Shown: piece after piece, positions 10,571 to 27,863 of the stretch
Layout of the letters: each line of letters starts with the position of its first letter
Position numbering within the stretch: the stretch's first letter is position 1
DNA from: an uncultured Verrucomicrobiota bacterium
GTDB lineage: Bacteria > Auribacterota > JABMQX01 > JAFGEW01
Direction: 5' to 3'
Assembly: GCA_964449605.1 (NCBI GenBank)
Contig: CAYUZG010000001.1
Location: forward strand, 1 to 48,279
DNA length: 48,279 nt
The notes under the pieces: model-generated
What the model saw: only the letters and a program-made list of their open reading frames with translations
What the model was told of the DNA's origin: nothing
Database searches by the model: none
Made by a program: the position numbers and the translations under genes

Positions 10571-12094
10571 ATGAGGATACGGATTCTGATTGCAGGCCTC
10601 GCGGCGAGCGCGGCGATCTCGATGGGGCTCGCGTCTGTGCCTGCCGTGGCGACCATGGCCGAGGCCGAACCGAAGCTCATGGTGATGCACAACGTGCAGA
10701 TGGTCAAGATCGGCGACGCGGCGGGCGTCTCGGAGGATATCAAGAACAAGGGAGGCAAGGGACCGAACCCGAACGTGTACGTGGACCTGTTCACCCAGTT
10801 CGAGGACATCCCGAACCCCGAGCGCGTTCTGAGCCTGAACGACCGGGTCTACTTCGACATCGAGGAGCAGTCGGGCATCTATTATTACTGGCCGCAGGAC
10901 TACTCGCTCGCGCACGACCCGGACCTGGGCCACCTGTTCCGCATCCGCTACGGCGTCGTCACGCCCGACGACGAGGAGAGCGCCAACAACGTCGCGGTCG
11001 CCTTCACGCTCTGGGGTGGCTACTCGAAAGGCGACTACGACCTGCTCAAGTTCCTGCTCAACAAGTACCTCGAACGGGAGAACCTGCCGCCGTGCACGGA
11101 TCTCAAGGCGCTCCCGTTTCATTCGTGCGACTTCACCTTCGGCGCGGCCGCGAGCTACGGCGTGCCCGACCAGCAGATCTCGGTCCCCGTGCTGAGCGAC
11201 ATCGCCGGCTTCATGGACGTGACGCTCACCACCGACGAGGTGACCGTCGAAGGCCTCAAGGTGGCGCTCCAGGACATCCAGGGCCTCACCGGCAAGGTGA
11301 AGCTGGTGACCGCCTCGACCGAGGGCGAGGGCTTCGCGATCCCCGAGCTGACGGCCCACGTGAGCCTGTGCGACACGAGGACCTACCAGCGCGAGCCGTA
11401 CGTACGCAACCGCACGTTCACCAACAGCAACGATTTCCCCGTGCGCCTCAAGGCGCTCTACTTCCTGGTCGACGCAGGCGACACGGTGAAGCTGTTCGAG
11501 TACGACCTCGGCAACACGCTCGTGCTGCCGGGCCAGCAGGCGAACCTTCGGCACAACCACGTGCACAGCGGGTTGTCCGACCGCGCAATCCGCGGCTGGT
11601 ACGAGTACCGGCTCGTCAACGAGGGCGACAAGATCCAGGAATACTGGGACACCGTGATGAAGCGGCTCACCGTCGGGCTCGGCAAGCGGACGGTGAAGAT
11701 GCTCACGCTCGAAGTGCTCGACGAGGACTGGTTCGACGAGTACGGCGTCGAGCTCATCAAGGTCAAGGTCCGGTCGAAGCACTTCGACCCGAACAGCAAG
11801 ACGGTGCTCACGAAGAACTACAAGCTCGACGCCGACGAGCCCGAGGTGAAGGGCGACGCGCTCTTCTTCATCGAGGGCGAGGAGCACGAGGACACGTCGT
11901 ACTTCGAGTACAAGATCTACATGATTGACCTGAACGGCGACGTGCACCGTGACTCGGACTGGCGCGAAGGCGTCGAGGATGACGAGGGAATCTACATCGG
12001 CAAGAAGCACTTCGACGAGCTGATCGGTACACCCGAAGACGACAGCGACGAGAGCGACGACAACGGCGGCGACGAGGACGAGGACGACGAGTGA
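10571..12094 (+). CDS. secreted protein, divergent member of the YYYxP paralogue family, acidic C-terminal tail
   Basis: RBS GAGGAGAAGACCG-ATG. Signal peptide MRIRILIAGLAASAAISMGLASVPAVA. IYYYWP motif at nt 10880-10894. C-terminal tail DDSDESDDNGGDEDEDDE. Confidence 0.7.
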   Translation: MRIRILIAGLAASAAISMGLASVPAVATMAEAEPKLMVMHNVQMVKIGDAAGVSEDIKNKGGKGPNPNVYVDLFTQFEDIPNPERVLSLNDRVYFDIEEQSGIYYYWPQDYSLAHDPDLGHLFRIRYGVVTPDDEESANNVAVAFTLWGGYSKGDYDLLKFLLNKYLERENLPPCTDLKALPFHSCDFTFGAAASYGVPDQQISVPVLSDIAGFMDVTLTTDEVTVEGLKVALQDIQGLTGKVKLVTASTEGEGFAIPELTAHVSLCDTRTYQREPYVRNRTFTNSNDFPVRLKALYFLVDAGDTVKLFEYDLGNTLVLPGQQANLRHNHVHSGLSDRAIRGWYEYRLVNEGDKIQEYWDTVMKRLTVGLGKRTVKMLTLEVLDEDWFDEYGVELIKVKVRSKHFDPNSKTVLTKNYKLDADEPEVKGDALFFIEGEEHEDTSYFEYKIYMIDLNGDVHRDSDWREGVEDDEGIYIGKKHFDELIGTPEDDSDESDDNGGDEDEDDE

Positions 12095-12146
12095 GCCTGC
12101 CTGTCTGGGGGGCGGCAGGCACGCGTCACCGTTTGAATAAGGACTC

Positions 12147-25151: not shown

Positions 25152-27863
25152 ATGAAACGACGCACGCTGACACTGATCGTTCTTGTCGGGCTCGCGCTCT
25201 ATGTGGCCGGCGTGGCCGCGCAGGAGATCCTGCTCGACGAGAACATCAAGGCGGGCAAGCTGATGTGCTTCCGCGACTTCAGCGACCCGAAGAAGTACTA
25301 CTACCTGGCCGACCAGCCGCACGTCGCGCTCAGGGTGGACAACAACATGCCCGAGTTCGCCTTCATCAAGTACGTCAAGAACGTGCCGCGCGAAGGCGAG
25401 GGCGGCATCGAAGAAGGCGAGGGCGGCGGCGTCGTCACCTGCCTGATGAGCTACGAGGTTTCCGACGAGGACCGCCGCGAAGCTGAGCGCGTGCTCCAGC
25501 AGATGGTGCCGGGCGCCAAGCTCGCCGGGCCGGTCATCTACCGCGCCGGCAGCTACGCGGTGACCACCCCGCTCGCGAGCGGCGAAGGCGAGGACGACGA
25601 GGCGATGAAGTTCATCCACCAGATCTTCGCCACGGGAAAGGCGCCCGTGCTCGAGGGCCACAAGTGCGCCGTCTCGATGCGGCTCACCAAGGAAGGCGCC
25701 ACGCTCCTGTGGGAGAGCTTCAAGATGGGCACCTCGCAGGTGAGCGTCGTCTACGAGATGGAGGTCAAGGGCTACCGCAACCCGTTCGAAGCGACCATCA
25801 TCGCCGACTGGTCCAAGATCACCAAGCACCACCAGCTCCAGGCCGGCATCAAGGCCAAGTGGTTCGGCGCCGATATCGACATGCTCTGGCAGGAGCTGCG
25901 GCAGCAGGGCGCCGTTCAGATCATCCAGAAGGGCGAAGATGAGAACATGGAGAAGATCCTCGCCGAAGCCCAGCGCATCATCATGGCGCGCATCTTCGAT
26001 CGCGAGGAAATGCCCAGCCTGGGCGACCTCGCGAGCCAGGCCGGCGGCCAGAACGCCTACTCGAACCTTGACCGCGCCGTGAGCTACATGCGCGACGAGG
26101 AGGCCCGGCGCCGCAGCCGCCCAAGCGGCACCCGTGAAGGCAGCACGACCACGAGCGAGCTGTACATCAACTGGCCTGGCCCGGAATCCGACTACGCGCG
26201 CGACACGAGCCGCTGGGTCGTCGTCGCCGGCGAGCCATCCGGCGCCGCCGAGGACACGAGCGGCGCCTCCGACCAGCTGGACGCCCAAGAGCAGCGAGAC
26301 TTCGACCGCCACGTCCAGGAGGGCAATGAGCACTGGCGCGCAGGACGCTACCAGCAGGCGGCGGATGCCTACGAGGAGGCGTGGCTGATCGATCCGCGGC
26401 TCGGCGTCGACTACAACATCGCCCAGTGCCACGCCGCCCTCGGCGACTACGGACACGCGTTGACCGAGTTCCAGCAGCTCGAAACGCTCGAGACGGATGC
26501 GGGGCGGCAGTTCCGGCAGCGCTACCCGCAGCTCTTCCTCGACGTCGCCGAGTGCCTGCTCGCGGGTAACCGCGCCCGCGAGGCCGCGACCCGCATCGAA
26601 ACCTTCATGCAGCGCGCACGCGAGGCCGACCTCCCGAACGAGGAACACCACATGACCCGCGCCCGGCAGCTCGCGCAGCAGTGCCGGGACGCCGGCGTCG
26701 AGGTGAATGAGGGGGGCTCCGGCGAGAGCGACCACACCCCCGACACCGCGGCCGCCAGCACGGGCGGCGGCGGGACCGGCGGCGGCGAGACTGGTGGCGG
26801 CGAGACCGGCGGCGGTGGGACCGGCGGCGGTGGGACCGGCGGCGGCAGCGACCTGAGGGAGTCGCCCCTGCTCGGCGGCGCCGGGAGCGCCGAATCGAGG
26901 CGGTCGAGCCTGCGGCGGCCCGGCGAGCAGTCGCCGGCGGCCGAGCGGCGCGACGCGCTCCGCTCGCCTTACGGCGACGAAGCGGGCGGCGACGGCGCCG
27001 CGTCCGGCGGCGCCAGCGAACGCGCCGAGGGCGGCGGCCGCGAACGCGAGCAAGAGCGCACGTCGGGCATCTCGATGCTCGTCTCGTACAAGATGCGGAA
27101 CATCAAGGTGTCGGGCCGCCAGGAGATCACACTGAAGAAGTACACGCTCGACACGCAGCCGTTCGTCTTCACAGCCAACATCAACGGCATGCGCCGCTAC
27201 ATGGACAATCCGGCCGTCTTCAAAGCGGTCAACCTCGACGACCCGGTCTTCAAGCAGCGCGAGGTGCTCGTCTCGCTCGACGGCCAGGACGCTGCCGACT
27301 TCGACAAGTTCATCAACTACGTCACCGTCCAGCTGCGCAAGAAGCACCAGAACGGCGACATCACCTACGACGAGATCAAGATCAACAAGGACAACTTCCA
27401 GCAGAGCGCCAACTACTTCCGCATGGTCTACGGCTGGAAGGGCGACAACGACCGCACCAAGTGGCTCAGCTTCGACTACAAGGTCGTCTGGAGCTTCTTC
27501 GGCGGCGCCGTCTACGAGCAGCCGTGGACGACGACCGACGAGTTCATGATCAACGTCAGCCCGCCGACCAAGTACCGGACGATTCGCTTCGAGGCCGACC
27601 CCCAGATGCTGCGCGACGAGAACGTGCGCCACGTCGATGCGACGATCCGCTACACGCTCTTCGGCACGCCGTGGGCCGAGCGCGTCACGTTGAAGTCGAG
27701 CGACGAGGCGCCGGAGAAGGAAGTCGAGTACGTCCACATGGACGGCGACTACGACTACGAGTACGAACTCTCGTGGCGGCTGCGCGGCAACAAGAAAGTC
27801 GAGACCGGCCCGCTCGCCGGCGACGACACGATCATCTACTGCGACGAGCTGCCCGAGAACTAG
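25152..27863 (+). CDS. secreted protein, long YYYxP-family member with an inserted TPR module and a Gly-rich repeat linker
   Basis: RBS GGGAGGAGCGATC-ATG. Signal peptide MKRRTLTLIVLVGLALYVAGVAA. Motifs: KYYYLADQP (25296-25304), GKAPVLEGHKCAVSMRLTKEGATLLWESFK, NLDDPVFKQREVLVSLDG...INYVTVQLRKK...FDYKVVW. Ends in IIYCDELPEN. The insert at ~26280-26690 resembles module 3 of the TPR paralogues. Confidence 0.8.
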   Translation: MKRRTLTLIVLVGLALYVAGVAAQEILLDENIKAGKLMCFRDFSDPKKYYYLADQPHVALRVDNNMPEFAFIKYVKNVPREGEGGIEEGEGGGVVTCLMSYEVSDEDRREAERVLQQMVPGAKLAGPVIYRAGSYAVTTPLASGEGEDDEAMKFIHQIFATGKAPVLEGHKCAVSMRLTKEGATLLWESFKMGTSQVSVVYEMEVKGYRNPFEATIIADWSKITKHHQLQAGIKAKWFGADIDMLWQELRQQGAVQIIQKGEDENMEKILAEAQRIIMARIFDREEMPSLGDLASQAGGQNAYSNLDRAVSYMRDEEARRRSRPSGTREGSTTTSELYINWPGPESDYARDTSRWVVVAGEPSGAAEDTSGASDQLDAQEQRDFDRHVQEGNEHWRAGRYQQAADAYEEAWLIDPRLGVDYNIAQCHAALGDYGHALTEFQQLETLETDAGRQFRQRYPQLFLDVAECLLAGNRAREAATRIETFMQRAREADLPNEEHHMTRARQLAQQCRDAGVEVNEGGSGESDHTPDTAAASTGGGGTGGGETGGGETGGGGTGGGGTGGGSDLRESPLLGGAGSAESRRSSLRRPGEQSPAAERRDALRSPYGDEAGGDGAASGGASERAEGGGREREQERTSGISMLVSYKMRNIKVSGRQEITLKKYTLDTQPFVFTANINGMRRYMDNPAVFKAVNLDDPVFKQREVLVSLDGQDAADFDKFINYVTVQLRKKHQNGDITYDEIKINKDNFQQSANYFRMVYGWKGDNDRTKWLSFDYKVVWSFFGGAVYEQPWTTTDEFMINVSPPTKYRTIRFEADPQMLRDENVRHVDATIRYTLFGTPWAERVTLKSSDEAPEKEVEYVHMDGDYDYEYELSWRLRGNKKVETGPLAGDDTIIYCDELPEN
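26761..26850 (+). repeat. in-frame tandem 15-bp repeat (~6 units) encoding (T-G-G-G-G/E)n
   Basis: The DNA reads ggcggcggcgggacc / ggcggcggcgagact / ggtggcggcgagacc / ggcggcggtgggacc / ggcggcggtgggacc / ggcggcggc. The protein reads GGGGTGGGETGGGETGGGGTGGGGTGGG. Confidence 0.75.

Follow-up and report, generated by a model that had tools for sequence, protein, structure and literature searches.

The six genes and their kinship

The window analysed here, that is, the whole 48 kb stretch (48,279 nucleotides, 66% GC) of contig CAYUZG010000001.1 from an uncultured Verrucomicrobiota bacterium, carries six open reading frames (ORFs) on its + strand, named m1 to m6 in gene order, which a sequence-only reading had described as a paralogue family defined by an N-terminal YYYxP motif. 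All six were found where that reading had placed them, and their third-position GC content (GC3) of 0.90-0.95 is of the coding type that we took as the mark of real genes. The first, m1 (10571..12094; 507 amino acids, aa), is the most divergent of the six; its YYYWP motif stands at aa 104, its version of the shared N-domain is remote, and its C-terminus resembles the last sandwich domain of the longer proteins. It is followed by m2 (12147..13415; 422 aa), with the common N-domain of ~190 aa, FYYVP at aa 67 and a divergent C-terminal half, and by m3 (13426..15273; 615 aa), which comprises a signal peptide, an N-terminal beta-domain, a beta ribbon with an insert, and two immunoglobulin-like (Ig-like) sandwiches. 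The other three, m4 (15277..17211; 644 aa as drawn), m5 (18730..20850; 706 aa, with a Pro-rich N-terminal extension of ~100 aa behind the signal peptide) and m6 (25152..27863; 903 aa), are full-length paralogues, and together with m3 they are referred to below as the long members. In m6, an insert of ~350 aa (aa ~290-640) containing tetratricopeptide (TPR) repeats and a Gly-rich low-complexity stretch parts the N-module from the C-module; its TPR_2 domain at aa 387-415 scores 30.0 bits against a Pfam cut-off of 27. Behind the TPR insert, the linker (window 26700-26800, aa ~515-545) is a Gly-rich, near-perfect repeat, (GGGTGGGE)n, to which the variable low-complexity linker of the sequence-only reading corresponds in this member. 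The m4 ORF as drawn opens about 60 codons ahead of its own signal peptide (window 15277-15470), and because orthologue alignments begin only at about residue 64, its true start probably lies ~45-60 codons downstream of 15277, at an internal GTG or TTG near nt 15410-15460.

The motif instances IYYYWP, VFYYVP, MYYYIP, VYYYLP, HYYYLP and KYYYLA begin at nt 10880, 12345, 13570, 15601, 19123 and 25296, respectively, exactly as first read, and the pattern [YF]YY[LIVW][PA] is observed six times where 0.014 occurrences would be expected by chance from the composition of the six proteins. Among the further blocks proposed for the long members, GGILHFL was found in m3, m4 and m5, with GGVVTCL in m6, and GA.LLWE, (N/T)(L/I)DDP and (Y/F)(D/E)Y..W occur in all four. 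Other blocks hold with corrections: the (D/N)G.P(Q/E)F.F strand fits literally in m2 and m4 and in the variant described for m6, but m3 reads DGTLEFLC and m5 KGRPQFLF; the GKAP block is replaced in m3 by SGHAP; and V.V.(L/F)RK is present in m3, m4 and m6, with the variant VTVEVRKK in m5. The departures in the strand pattern and in the m3 SGHAP block are trivial. In an alignment of m3 orthologues with m4 and m5 of the window, residues H86, D188 and S190 are invariant.

BLASTP and profile comparisons established that the similarity among the proposed paralogues is not merely compositional. Pairwise BLASTP among m3 to m6 gave E-values of 1e-20 to 1e-62 covering both modules (m4 against m6 in two blocks, 6e-62 and 4e-52; m4 against m3, 2e-52; m5 against m3, 2.6e-62), and hhalign profiles, built from about 50 orthologues per member collected from other genomes, matched one another among m3 to m6 with a probability of 100%, in agreement with the proposed colinearity of the four long members over an N-module followed by a C-module. 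For m2, the evidence comprises a BLASTP match to m4 (E 6e-9), an hmmsearch value of 7.6e-8 and an hhalign alignment of residues 25-233 with the N-domain of m3 to m6 (probability 97-99%, E 1e-10 to 1e-17). Pairwise BLASTP of m1 against the other members produced no significant match, and this protein is linked only through remote profile matches: residues 91-235 align with m2 55-213 (probability 89%, E 2e-6), its N-domain aligns directly with m3, m5 and m6 only at E 0.003-0.02, and residues 330-466 align with the last sandwich of m4 and m6 (probability 54-65%, E about 1e-4). Thus the homology of m2 to m6 stands, and the sequence comparisons make the membership of m1 probable. In the profile test of the YYYxP domain, m2 to m6 were matched at a probability of 97-100%, and with the motif in all six, this N-terminal domain of ~190 aa is probably common to every member, m1 being included as a remote one. 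It is probable, if weakly supported, that m1 and m2 also end in one related sandwich, for which m2 reaches only E about 0.01-0.02 in hhalign; the ribbon-plus-insert segment and the second sandwich are additional features of m3 to m6. The remark that the C-module repeats once more proved right, because its two domains match each other (E 1e-5).

Fixed gene order across phyla and linked proteases

The term paralogue family is accurate as far as it goes, but it undersells the arrangement, as each of the six genes has its own orthologue, in the same order, in distant phyla. In an Armatimonadota metagenome-assembled genome (MAG; locus L001) and in loci L002 and L003 (two unrelated metagenomes), orthologues of m1-m6 lie in one orientation, each best matching its own counterpart. 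The m1 orthologues of these three loci show 25-31% identity (E 1e-27 to 1e-60), the m5 orthologues of L001 and L003 show 41-43%, and m2 orthologues occupy the same position in other phyla. The best conserved member is m3, with 45-57% identity between phyla, and the least conserved are m1 and m2 (22-31%). In a scan of one genome per GTDB species, a relative of m3 was present in 276 species genomes from more than ten phyla, with carriers among Verrucomicrobiota, Eisenbacteria, Acidobacteriota, Armatimonadota, Desulfobacterota, Bacteroidota, Spirochaetales, Planctomycetota, Beta- and Gammaproteobacteria, Methylomirabilota and Chloroflexota/Dormibacterota (MAG labels as given). The cultured Bacteroidota carriers include Tenacibaculum agarivorans, T. 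skagerrakense DSM 14836, Aquimarina, Hyunsoonleella pacifica, Agaribacillus aureus and Ascidiimonas. A HMMER scan of 1.84 billion cluster representatives (clusters at 50% identity) returned 1,765 clusters at E <= 1e-3 and 483 at E <= 1e-30, by which count the family is moderately large, not abundant. A mobile-element origin was rejected, the homologues being found neither on plasmids nor on IMG/VR viral contigs.

Synteny was compared in 83 loci, namely 80 GTDB species loci together with L001-L003. The exact order m1-m2-m3-m4-m5-m6 is found in 24 of the 83, and at least six members in 36; many of the others are broken by contig ends. The number of members ranges from 5 to 9 between lineages: Desulfobacterota carry the five-member variant up9518-m1-m2-m6-m3-m5 (up9518 is described below), and Flavobacteriia have the order m3-m4-(stand-alone N-domain)-m5-m4/6-protease-m1. 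The window's own order, up-m1-m2-m3-m4-(membrane ORFs)-m5-(TPR x3)-m6, recurs in the 88%-identical locus L004 up to the contig limit, which falls in the TPR genes. Because the one-to-one orthologues of all members keep their gene order even between distant phyla, the duplications are ancient, not recent, and on this sequence evidence what matters here is a conserved cassette of several genes rather than a local expansion. From the presence of one orthologue per paralogue in a fixed order we infer the pattern of a stoichiometric multi-subunit assembly.

The same pattern bears on an explanation that dispenses with a complex, in which the products would be independent secreted binding proteins or enzymes with diversified specificities, clustered only through tandem duplication. 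In its favour, the number of members varies as described, and the invariant H86, D188 and S190 could in principle be catalytic. Independent paralogues, however, are normally gained and lost by lineage, whereas here one-to-one orthologues and their positions are kept across phyla; moreover, the window's m6 has a Thr in place of the invariant His (GGVVTCL), and no enzyme family or fold was matched. We regard independent action of the products as very improbable.

Directly behind the last paralogue, about 25 loci encode a secreted protein that bears an invariant HExxH...E zincin signature, and two relatives of this zincin that were retrieved by sequence alone again proved to lie immediately downstream of complete cassettes. 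In Flavobacteriia the protease sits inside the cassette, an astacin fused to a C70 (AvrRpt2-like) cysteine protease occupying that position, and the acidobacterial locus L019 has an S8 subtilase at the protease position. Because one protease class replaces another at a fixed position, proteolysis appears integral to the system. Searches of Pfam, NCBIfam, the PDB and sequence databases with the zincin family yielded only hypothetical proteins. Some loci depart from the single zincin gene: a Dormibacterota MAG has three tandem zincin paralogues behind its cassette (L021, 7629-11686), and L073 and L078 carry a 720-aa version bearing two HExxH motifs. Elsewhere in the window, an 858-aa protein (3495-6071, + strand) has TPR repeats and, in its N-terminal part, a hydrophobic segment; its match to Peptidase_M1 covers the C-terminal part of that domain. 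As the protein has no HExxH, it is probably not an active M1 peptidase.

Export, accessory genes and the cell envelope

In the window members and the orthologues inspected, signal peptidase I (SPase-I) signal peptides end in an AxA-type site, and the mature N-termini are conserved from residue one (ALVxYDEG in m3; Q(Q/E)ILLD in m4 and m6). No hydrophobic or transmembrane segment was found behind the signal peptide in the members; LPXTG (LPx[TSA]G), thioester C[GLA]EQ, PEP-CTERM and MACPF motifs are absent from the proteins scanned, and a lipobox-like pattern is rare (2-5 of 44-76 orthologues per family). Since the signals are cleavable and no later hydrophobic segment, LPXTG or lipobox accompanies them, the products are soluble exported proteins. 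Acidic C-terminal tails were rejected as a family feature, being confined to the window's lineage.

Upstream of m1 lies up9518 (9518..10534, + strand), which encodes 338 aa with a signal peptide and an Ig-like domain at residues 73-175, the latter matching a PHROG virion Ig-like family (2.7e-13). It is found as a separate gene directly ahead of m1 in 12 loci, and its profile matches the first ~100-250 residues of m1 orthologues of 700-900 aa (E 7e-7 to 1e-3), which indicates gene fission or fusion; by these sequence relations it belongs to the cassette, beyond the region that the sequence-only reading had covered. The N-terminal extension of m1 is variable: it consists of DUF7910 in L003, of three DUF7452 domains in Tenacibaculum, and of the Ig-like domain that the window keeps in up9518. 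DUF7910 has been described as a fascin-like beta-trefoil (PMC12656318), and a jacalin gene adjoins the cassette in L003.

Between m5 and m6 the window has three genes for secreted TPR proteins on the + strand, tprA (20899-22185), tprB (22251-23594) and tprC (23694-25073), which match multiple Pfam TPR families (E 1e-14 to 1e-21) and are mutually 34-39% identical at full length; the insert of m6 aligns with two of them, tprB and tprC (E 1e-9 to 1e-11). Because the three are paralogous to one another and to the m6 insert, they are part of the system in this lineage, as they are in L004. Inserts of this kind, placed between the N- and C-modules, are recurrent in m6-type proteins and were also seen in the unrelated long homologues P0233, P0201, P0219 and P0226 and in L007. 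Two further + strand ORFs separate m4 from m5. The first (17208..17699; 163 aa), whose start overlaps the m4 stop, is a putative gene for a small hydrophobic protein, by eye a membrane protein of about four helices; it failed the GC3 filter, matched no family and showed no homologue in the other loci, and the ORF at the equivalent position of L004 is not membrane-protein-like. The second (17835..18698; 287 aa; GC3 0.75, below its neighbours) encodes a polytopic membrane protein that likewise showed no homologue in the other loci and has only a marginal PADLOC match (E 0.01). Right behind m6, a TPR_12/TPR_10-rich protein of 681 aa (27885..29930, + strand; GC3 0.77, below the cassette) begins with a hydrophobic stretch that is, by eye, a membrane anchor; it shows no match to tprA, tprB, tprC or the m6 insert at E <= 0.01, and its membership of the cassette is uncertain.

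Other lineages have accessory genes of their own. Five Bacteroidia loci (L017, at 13678-14529; L033, L038, L046 and L050) carry between m4 and m5 a conserved secreted protein of ~255 aa without a Pfam match, whose seemingly invariant GHSG...NCSDF motifs, with His before Cys, resemble by eye those of permuted papain-like peptidases. In the five-member cassettes of Desulfobacterota, a conserved small secreted protein of ~150 aa that contains Cys precedes m5 (L030, L042 and L067), and another, of ~290-350 aa, follows it (L030, L043 and L065); the latter has acidic repeats of the PYQEN type and a C-terminal domain flanked by Cys. Neither has a Pfam match. In a subgroup with the order m1-m2-m3-m5-m4-m4 (L002/L034, L016, L020 and L064), a YdbH-like intermembrane lipid-transport gene precedes the cassette, and L002/L034, L016 and L020 also have a divergently oriented caspase-type gene (Peptidase_C14+DUF4384). 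In L002 the cassette is followed by Lipoprotein_19 (YnbE-like) and DUF1318 (YdbL-like) genes, the regions in question being 2090-6693 and 17674-18901.

These surroundings could be taken to favour a periplasmic or envelope scaffold, that is, a structural or transport-related complex kept in the periplasm and assembled with the help of TPR proteins. Such a scaffold would agree with the presence of Sec signals only, with the lack of a cassette-encoded outer-membrane route, with the secreted TPR paralogues and membrane ORFs inside the window's cassette, and with the YdbH-like neighbours and the downstream YnbE/DUF1318-type genes. We nevertheless consider it improbable: the YdbH linkage is limited to the one subgroup, so patchy a distribution is unusual for core envelope machinery, and the Chloroflexota and Dormibacterota carrier MAGs (labels as given) may lack a classical periplasm.

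Rfam and tRNA scans of the window were empty. Its remaining part is consistent with a PVC-type (Verrucomicrobiota-like) host in that it contains, on the - strand at 34198-43118, a Bat/MoxR-type 'aerotolerance' cluster. This cluster consists of a MoxR AAA_3 ATPase (42108-43118), a DUF58 protein (41193-42089), a DUF1559/N-methyl pilin-like protein (40484-41176), a BatA+VWA protein (38384-40468) and a DUF4175 protein of 1356 aa (34198-38268). Also on the - strand, 43419-47589 encodes a transglutaminase-like DUF3857/DUF3858 protein (903 aa) and a DacZ-type diadenylate cyclase (DAC + DacZ_P, 391 aa).

Predicted structure and models of assembly

The AlphaFold2 model of m3, built with 50 homologues, has a mean predicted local distance difference test (pLDDT) score of 79.9. 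Residues ~25-185 are predicted to form a mixed beta domain with two helices, and two very long strands (188-217 and 335-361) form a ribbon that encloses an insert made of helices and a ~45-residue segment predicted to be disordered (pLDDT below 50). That disordered segment, AVExGQIxGRQxRGWF...TDNQYVLKKRxDI, ranks among the best conserved stretches of the m3 orthologues. Residues ~370-600 are modelled as two beta-sandwich domains with a pLDDT above 90, which bears out the guess of two tandem sandwiches made from the repeated sequence pattern. Foldseek comparison of the full m3 model with the PDB returned only generic Ig-like neighbours at template modelling (TM) scores of 0.1-0.36, including streptococcal pilins, Bacteroides FimA-like 'adhesins', FnIII receptors and complement MG domains; for the C-module, the pilins 6n0a and 3b2m and the FimA-like 3up6, 3pay and 4k4k were matched with Foldseek probabilities of 0.93-1.0. 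The N-module was also modelled alone, with a pLDDT of only 71.5, and found no significant analogue in the PDB among its top 50 matches, the best (E 0.1) being to Asf1-type sandwiches.

Two side observations concern the distribution of this N-module. Among predicted viral structures (Foldseek against BFVD), it has one credible match, an uncharacterised protein of Medusavirus stheno, A0A7S7YF07 (model m48d07cb06c68; 417 aa, E 7.6e-7, 275 columns, 15% identity), which hints, at the level of predicted models, at relatives in amoeba-associated viruses or eukaryotes. Stand-alone YYYxP N-domains of ~230 aa (EYYSLP...GGILHFL...) are encoded in the Bacteroidota cassettes L056 (13506-14198), L073 (13550-14281) and L039 (13495-14166); because such copies occur, the YYYxP domain can be regarded as an independent module.

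The initial inability to assign the family to anything known was borne out, as the TPR insert of m6 was the only match when all members were scanned with Pfam, NCBIfam, PADLOC and PHROGs. Neither m3 nor a 51-sequence profile found a match among PDB sequences, all named homologues are labelled 'hypothetical protein', and a literature search found no earlier description of the cassette. By sequence, structure and literature comparison, the family and the fold of its N-module are new.

We give about even credence to a reading in which the cassette products form an ordered hetero-oligomer outside the cytoplasm, licensed by proteolysis. This reading agrees best with the shared termini, the fixed-order orthologues, export, the linked protease, the variable m1 module and the TPR module. 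In such a system, the proteins would be exported via Sec and then assemble in order, each paralogue holding its own position, with the best conserved member, m3, as the core. The m1 protein (with up9518) would carry the variable target-binding module and serve as adaptor or tip, a scaffold role would fall to the m6 TPR insert together with the free TPR paralogues, and the co-encoded protease would remove or cut a segment and thereby license assembly.

One form that such an assembly might take is a multi-component pore-forming, membrane-attack-like toxin, in which target binding and a proteolytic cut exposing an interface would be followed by sequential addition of subunits, the ribbons and inserts lining the pore. 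We hold this to be possible, if doubtful, and give the same tentative standing to its more specific version, a new-fold bacterial analogue of the complement membrane attack complex (MAC) with six secreted subunits, an interchangeable lectin-like targeting module and a zincin that is either activator or delivered cargo. The anatomy is suggestive in that the long strands of the N-module flank a helical insert of low model confidence yet conserved sequence, followed by Ig-like domains, and a similar layout, with long strands flanking helices and C-terminal Ig-like domains behind an N-terminal module, is known from the MAC and from the cholesterol-dependent cytolysin-like proteins (CDCLs) of Bacteroidota. 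Those systems likewise consist of co-encoded, paralogous secreted subunits with a common core and different ancillary domains, and CDCL pairs activated by propeptide cleavage offer a precedent (PMC11169675) for the ordered, proteolysis-licensed assembly that we propose here by analogy. The cassette-linked proteases of variable class, the lectin-like or otherwise variable modules on m1, the jacalin gene of L003 and the patchy distribution across phyla would fit this mode of action, and the two membrane ORFs within the window's cassette could be immunity proteins.

On the other side, no Pfam MACPF or Thiol_cytolysin match was obtained at E <= 1, nor any Pfam match to aerolysin or gasdermin, and the signature (Y/W)G(T/S)H(F/Y)x6GG of MACPF and the cholesterol-dependent cytolysins (CDCs) is absent from all seven proteins. 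The N-module model, at its pLDDT of 71.5, matched no such fold in a PDB that includes MACPF, CDC and CDCL structures, with no pore-former among its 50 best matches. Read from the sequence, the insert helices are amphipathic with an i/i+3-4 period and do not alternate as in a membrane hairpin; no immunity gene is conserved across loci; and many carriers are sulfate reducers or iron oxidisers without a known antagonistic lifestyle. Moreover, CDCLs are two-component lipoproteins, whereas the cassette has six or seven components with SPase-I signals. Other protease-linked toxins offer partial parallels only. Gasdermins are cytoplasmic, single-component proteins; the bacterial gasdermin-protease systems share with the cassette a beta-sheet core with refolding-type inserts and neighbouring proteases of varying class, but the cassette products are exported and multi-component, and no Pfam, PADLOC or fold match links the two. 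Anthrax-type binary toxins, which pair PA with the zincin LF, combine a secreted, protease-activated, Ig-domain-bearing component with a secreted HExxH zincin, and by analogy the cassette zincin could be cargo rather than a maturase; however, no Binary_toxB or PA14 match was found, the 'B' side would have to be six different proteins, and the zincin family is uncharacterised. The alpha2-macroglobulin and thioester proteins differ in that the cassette lacks C[GLA]EQ, and C3 and C5 were matched with a Foldseek probability below 0.6 and TM scores of about 0.1.

A second form of ordered assembly, a heteropolymeric adhesive fibre, is suggested by the structural neighbours of the C-module, the best of which are the Gram-positive pilins and Bacteroides FimA-like proteins listed above. 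Subunits would join head to tail, each docking its N-domain or N-terminal strand onto the C-terminal sandwich of the following subunit, with m1 as tip adhesin, further adaptors, a major subunit, and maturation by the protease. In type V pili (FimA/Mfa1), an operon encodes related subunits in a fixed order, among them a tip subunit with extra domains, and a protease carries out maturation; the cassette has the same fixed-order related subunits. The N-domain is found in all six members and the last sandwich in m3 to m6, remotely in m1 and marginally in m2; the conserved mature N-termini and the variable binding modules on m1 would also suit a fibre. Yet the alignments with 3up6, 3pay and 4k4k have a target-normalised TM of only 0.27-0.36 and a root-mean-square deviation (rmsd) of 9-12 A. 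Sortase pilins and MSCRAMM-like adhesins (Spy0128, 3b2m/6n0a; Bacillus anthracis TIE, 6fwv) share tandem Ig-like sandwiches with the cassette and, in the Foldseek comparison of the full-length model, ranked first by E-value (1e-6 to 1e-4), but aligned poorly (TM 0.13-0.27, rmsd above 13 A). At TM scores this low (0.13-0.36 overall), the similarity of the C-module to pilins is probably no more than generically Ig-like. In addition, the cassette has no lipoprotein signal of the type V kind and no LPXTG or sortase gene, and most hosts are diderm; the neighbourhoods inspected showed no recognisable usher, sortase or secretin. Known pilins have nothing that corresponds to the 340-aa N-module, and the cassette occurs in many phyla that lack type V pili. 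We judge a fibre unlikely, and lean slightly towards a protease-activated membrane-attacking complex in preference to it. Because the sequence, signal and N-module features that define the MAC, CDCL and type V pilus families were not found, all three serve as analogies of mechanism, not as family assignments.

Several points weigh against the ordered hetero-oligomer itself. The structure models are of monomers only, with an N-module of moderate confidence that matches no known assembly or pore fold in the PDB by Foldseek, and the case for co-assembly is built on gene anatomy and context. Because the Desulfobacterota variant has only five members, a strict six-fold stoichiometry is not universal. 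Of the roughly 55 loci whose flanking DNA is long enough, only about 25 show the linked protease; the window's 48 kb contain no HExxH protease gene, and tblastn of 30 cassette-linked protease-position proteins against the window returned nothing. The cassette encodes no secretion, usher or sortase machinery and no outer-membrane component, and its products may never leave the periplasm of diderm hosts.

A widely conserved, unnamed cassette whose N-module is free of known analogues is a combination that usually marks undiscovered cell biology, be it an extracytoplasmic machine, a toxin or an appendage, and because cultured carriers exist, the question is directly testable. If the membrane-attack reading is true, the very few known giant-pore formers would be joined by a new superfamily; should the fibre reading be true instead, the family would represent a new class of pilus, one that forms without assembly machinery dedicated to it.

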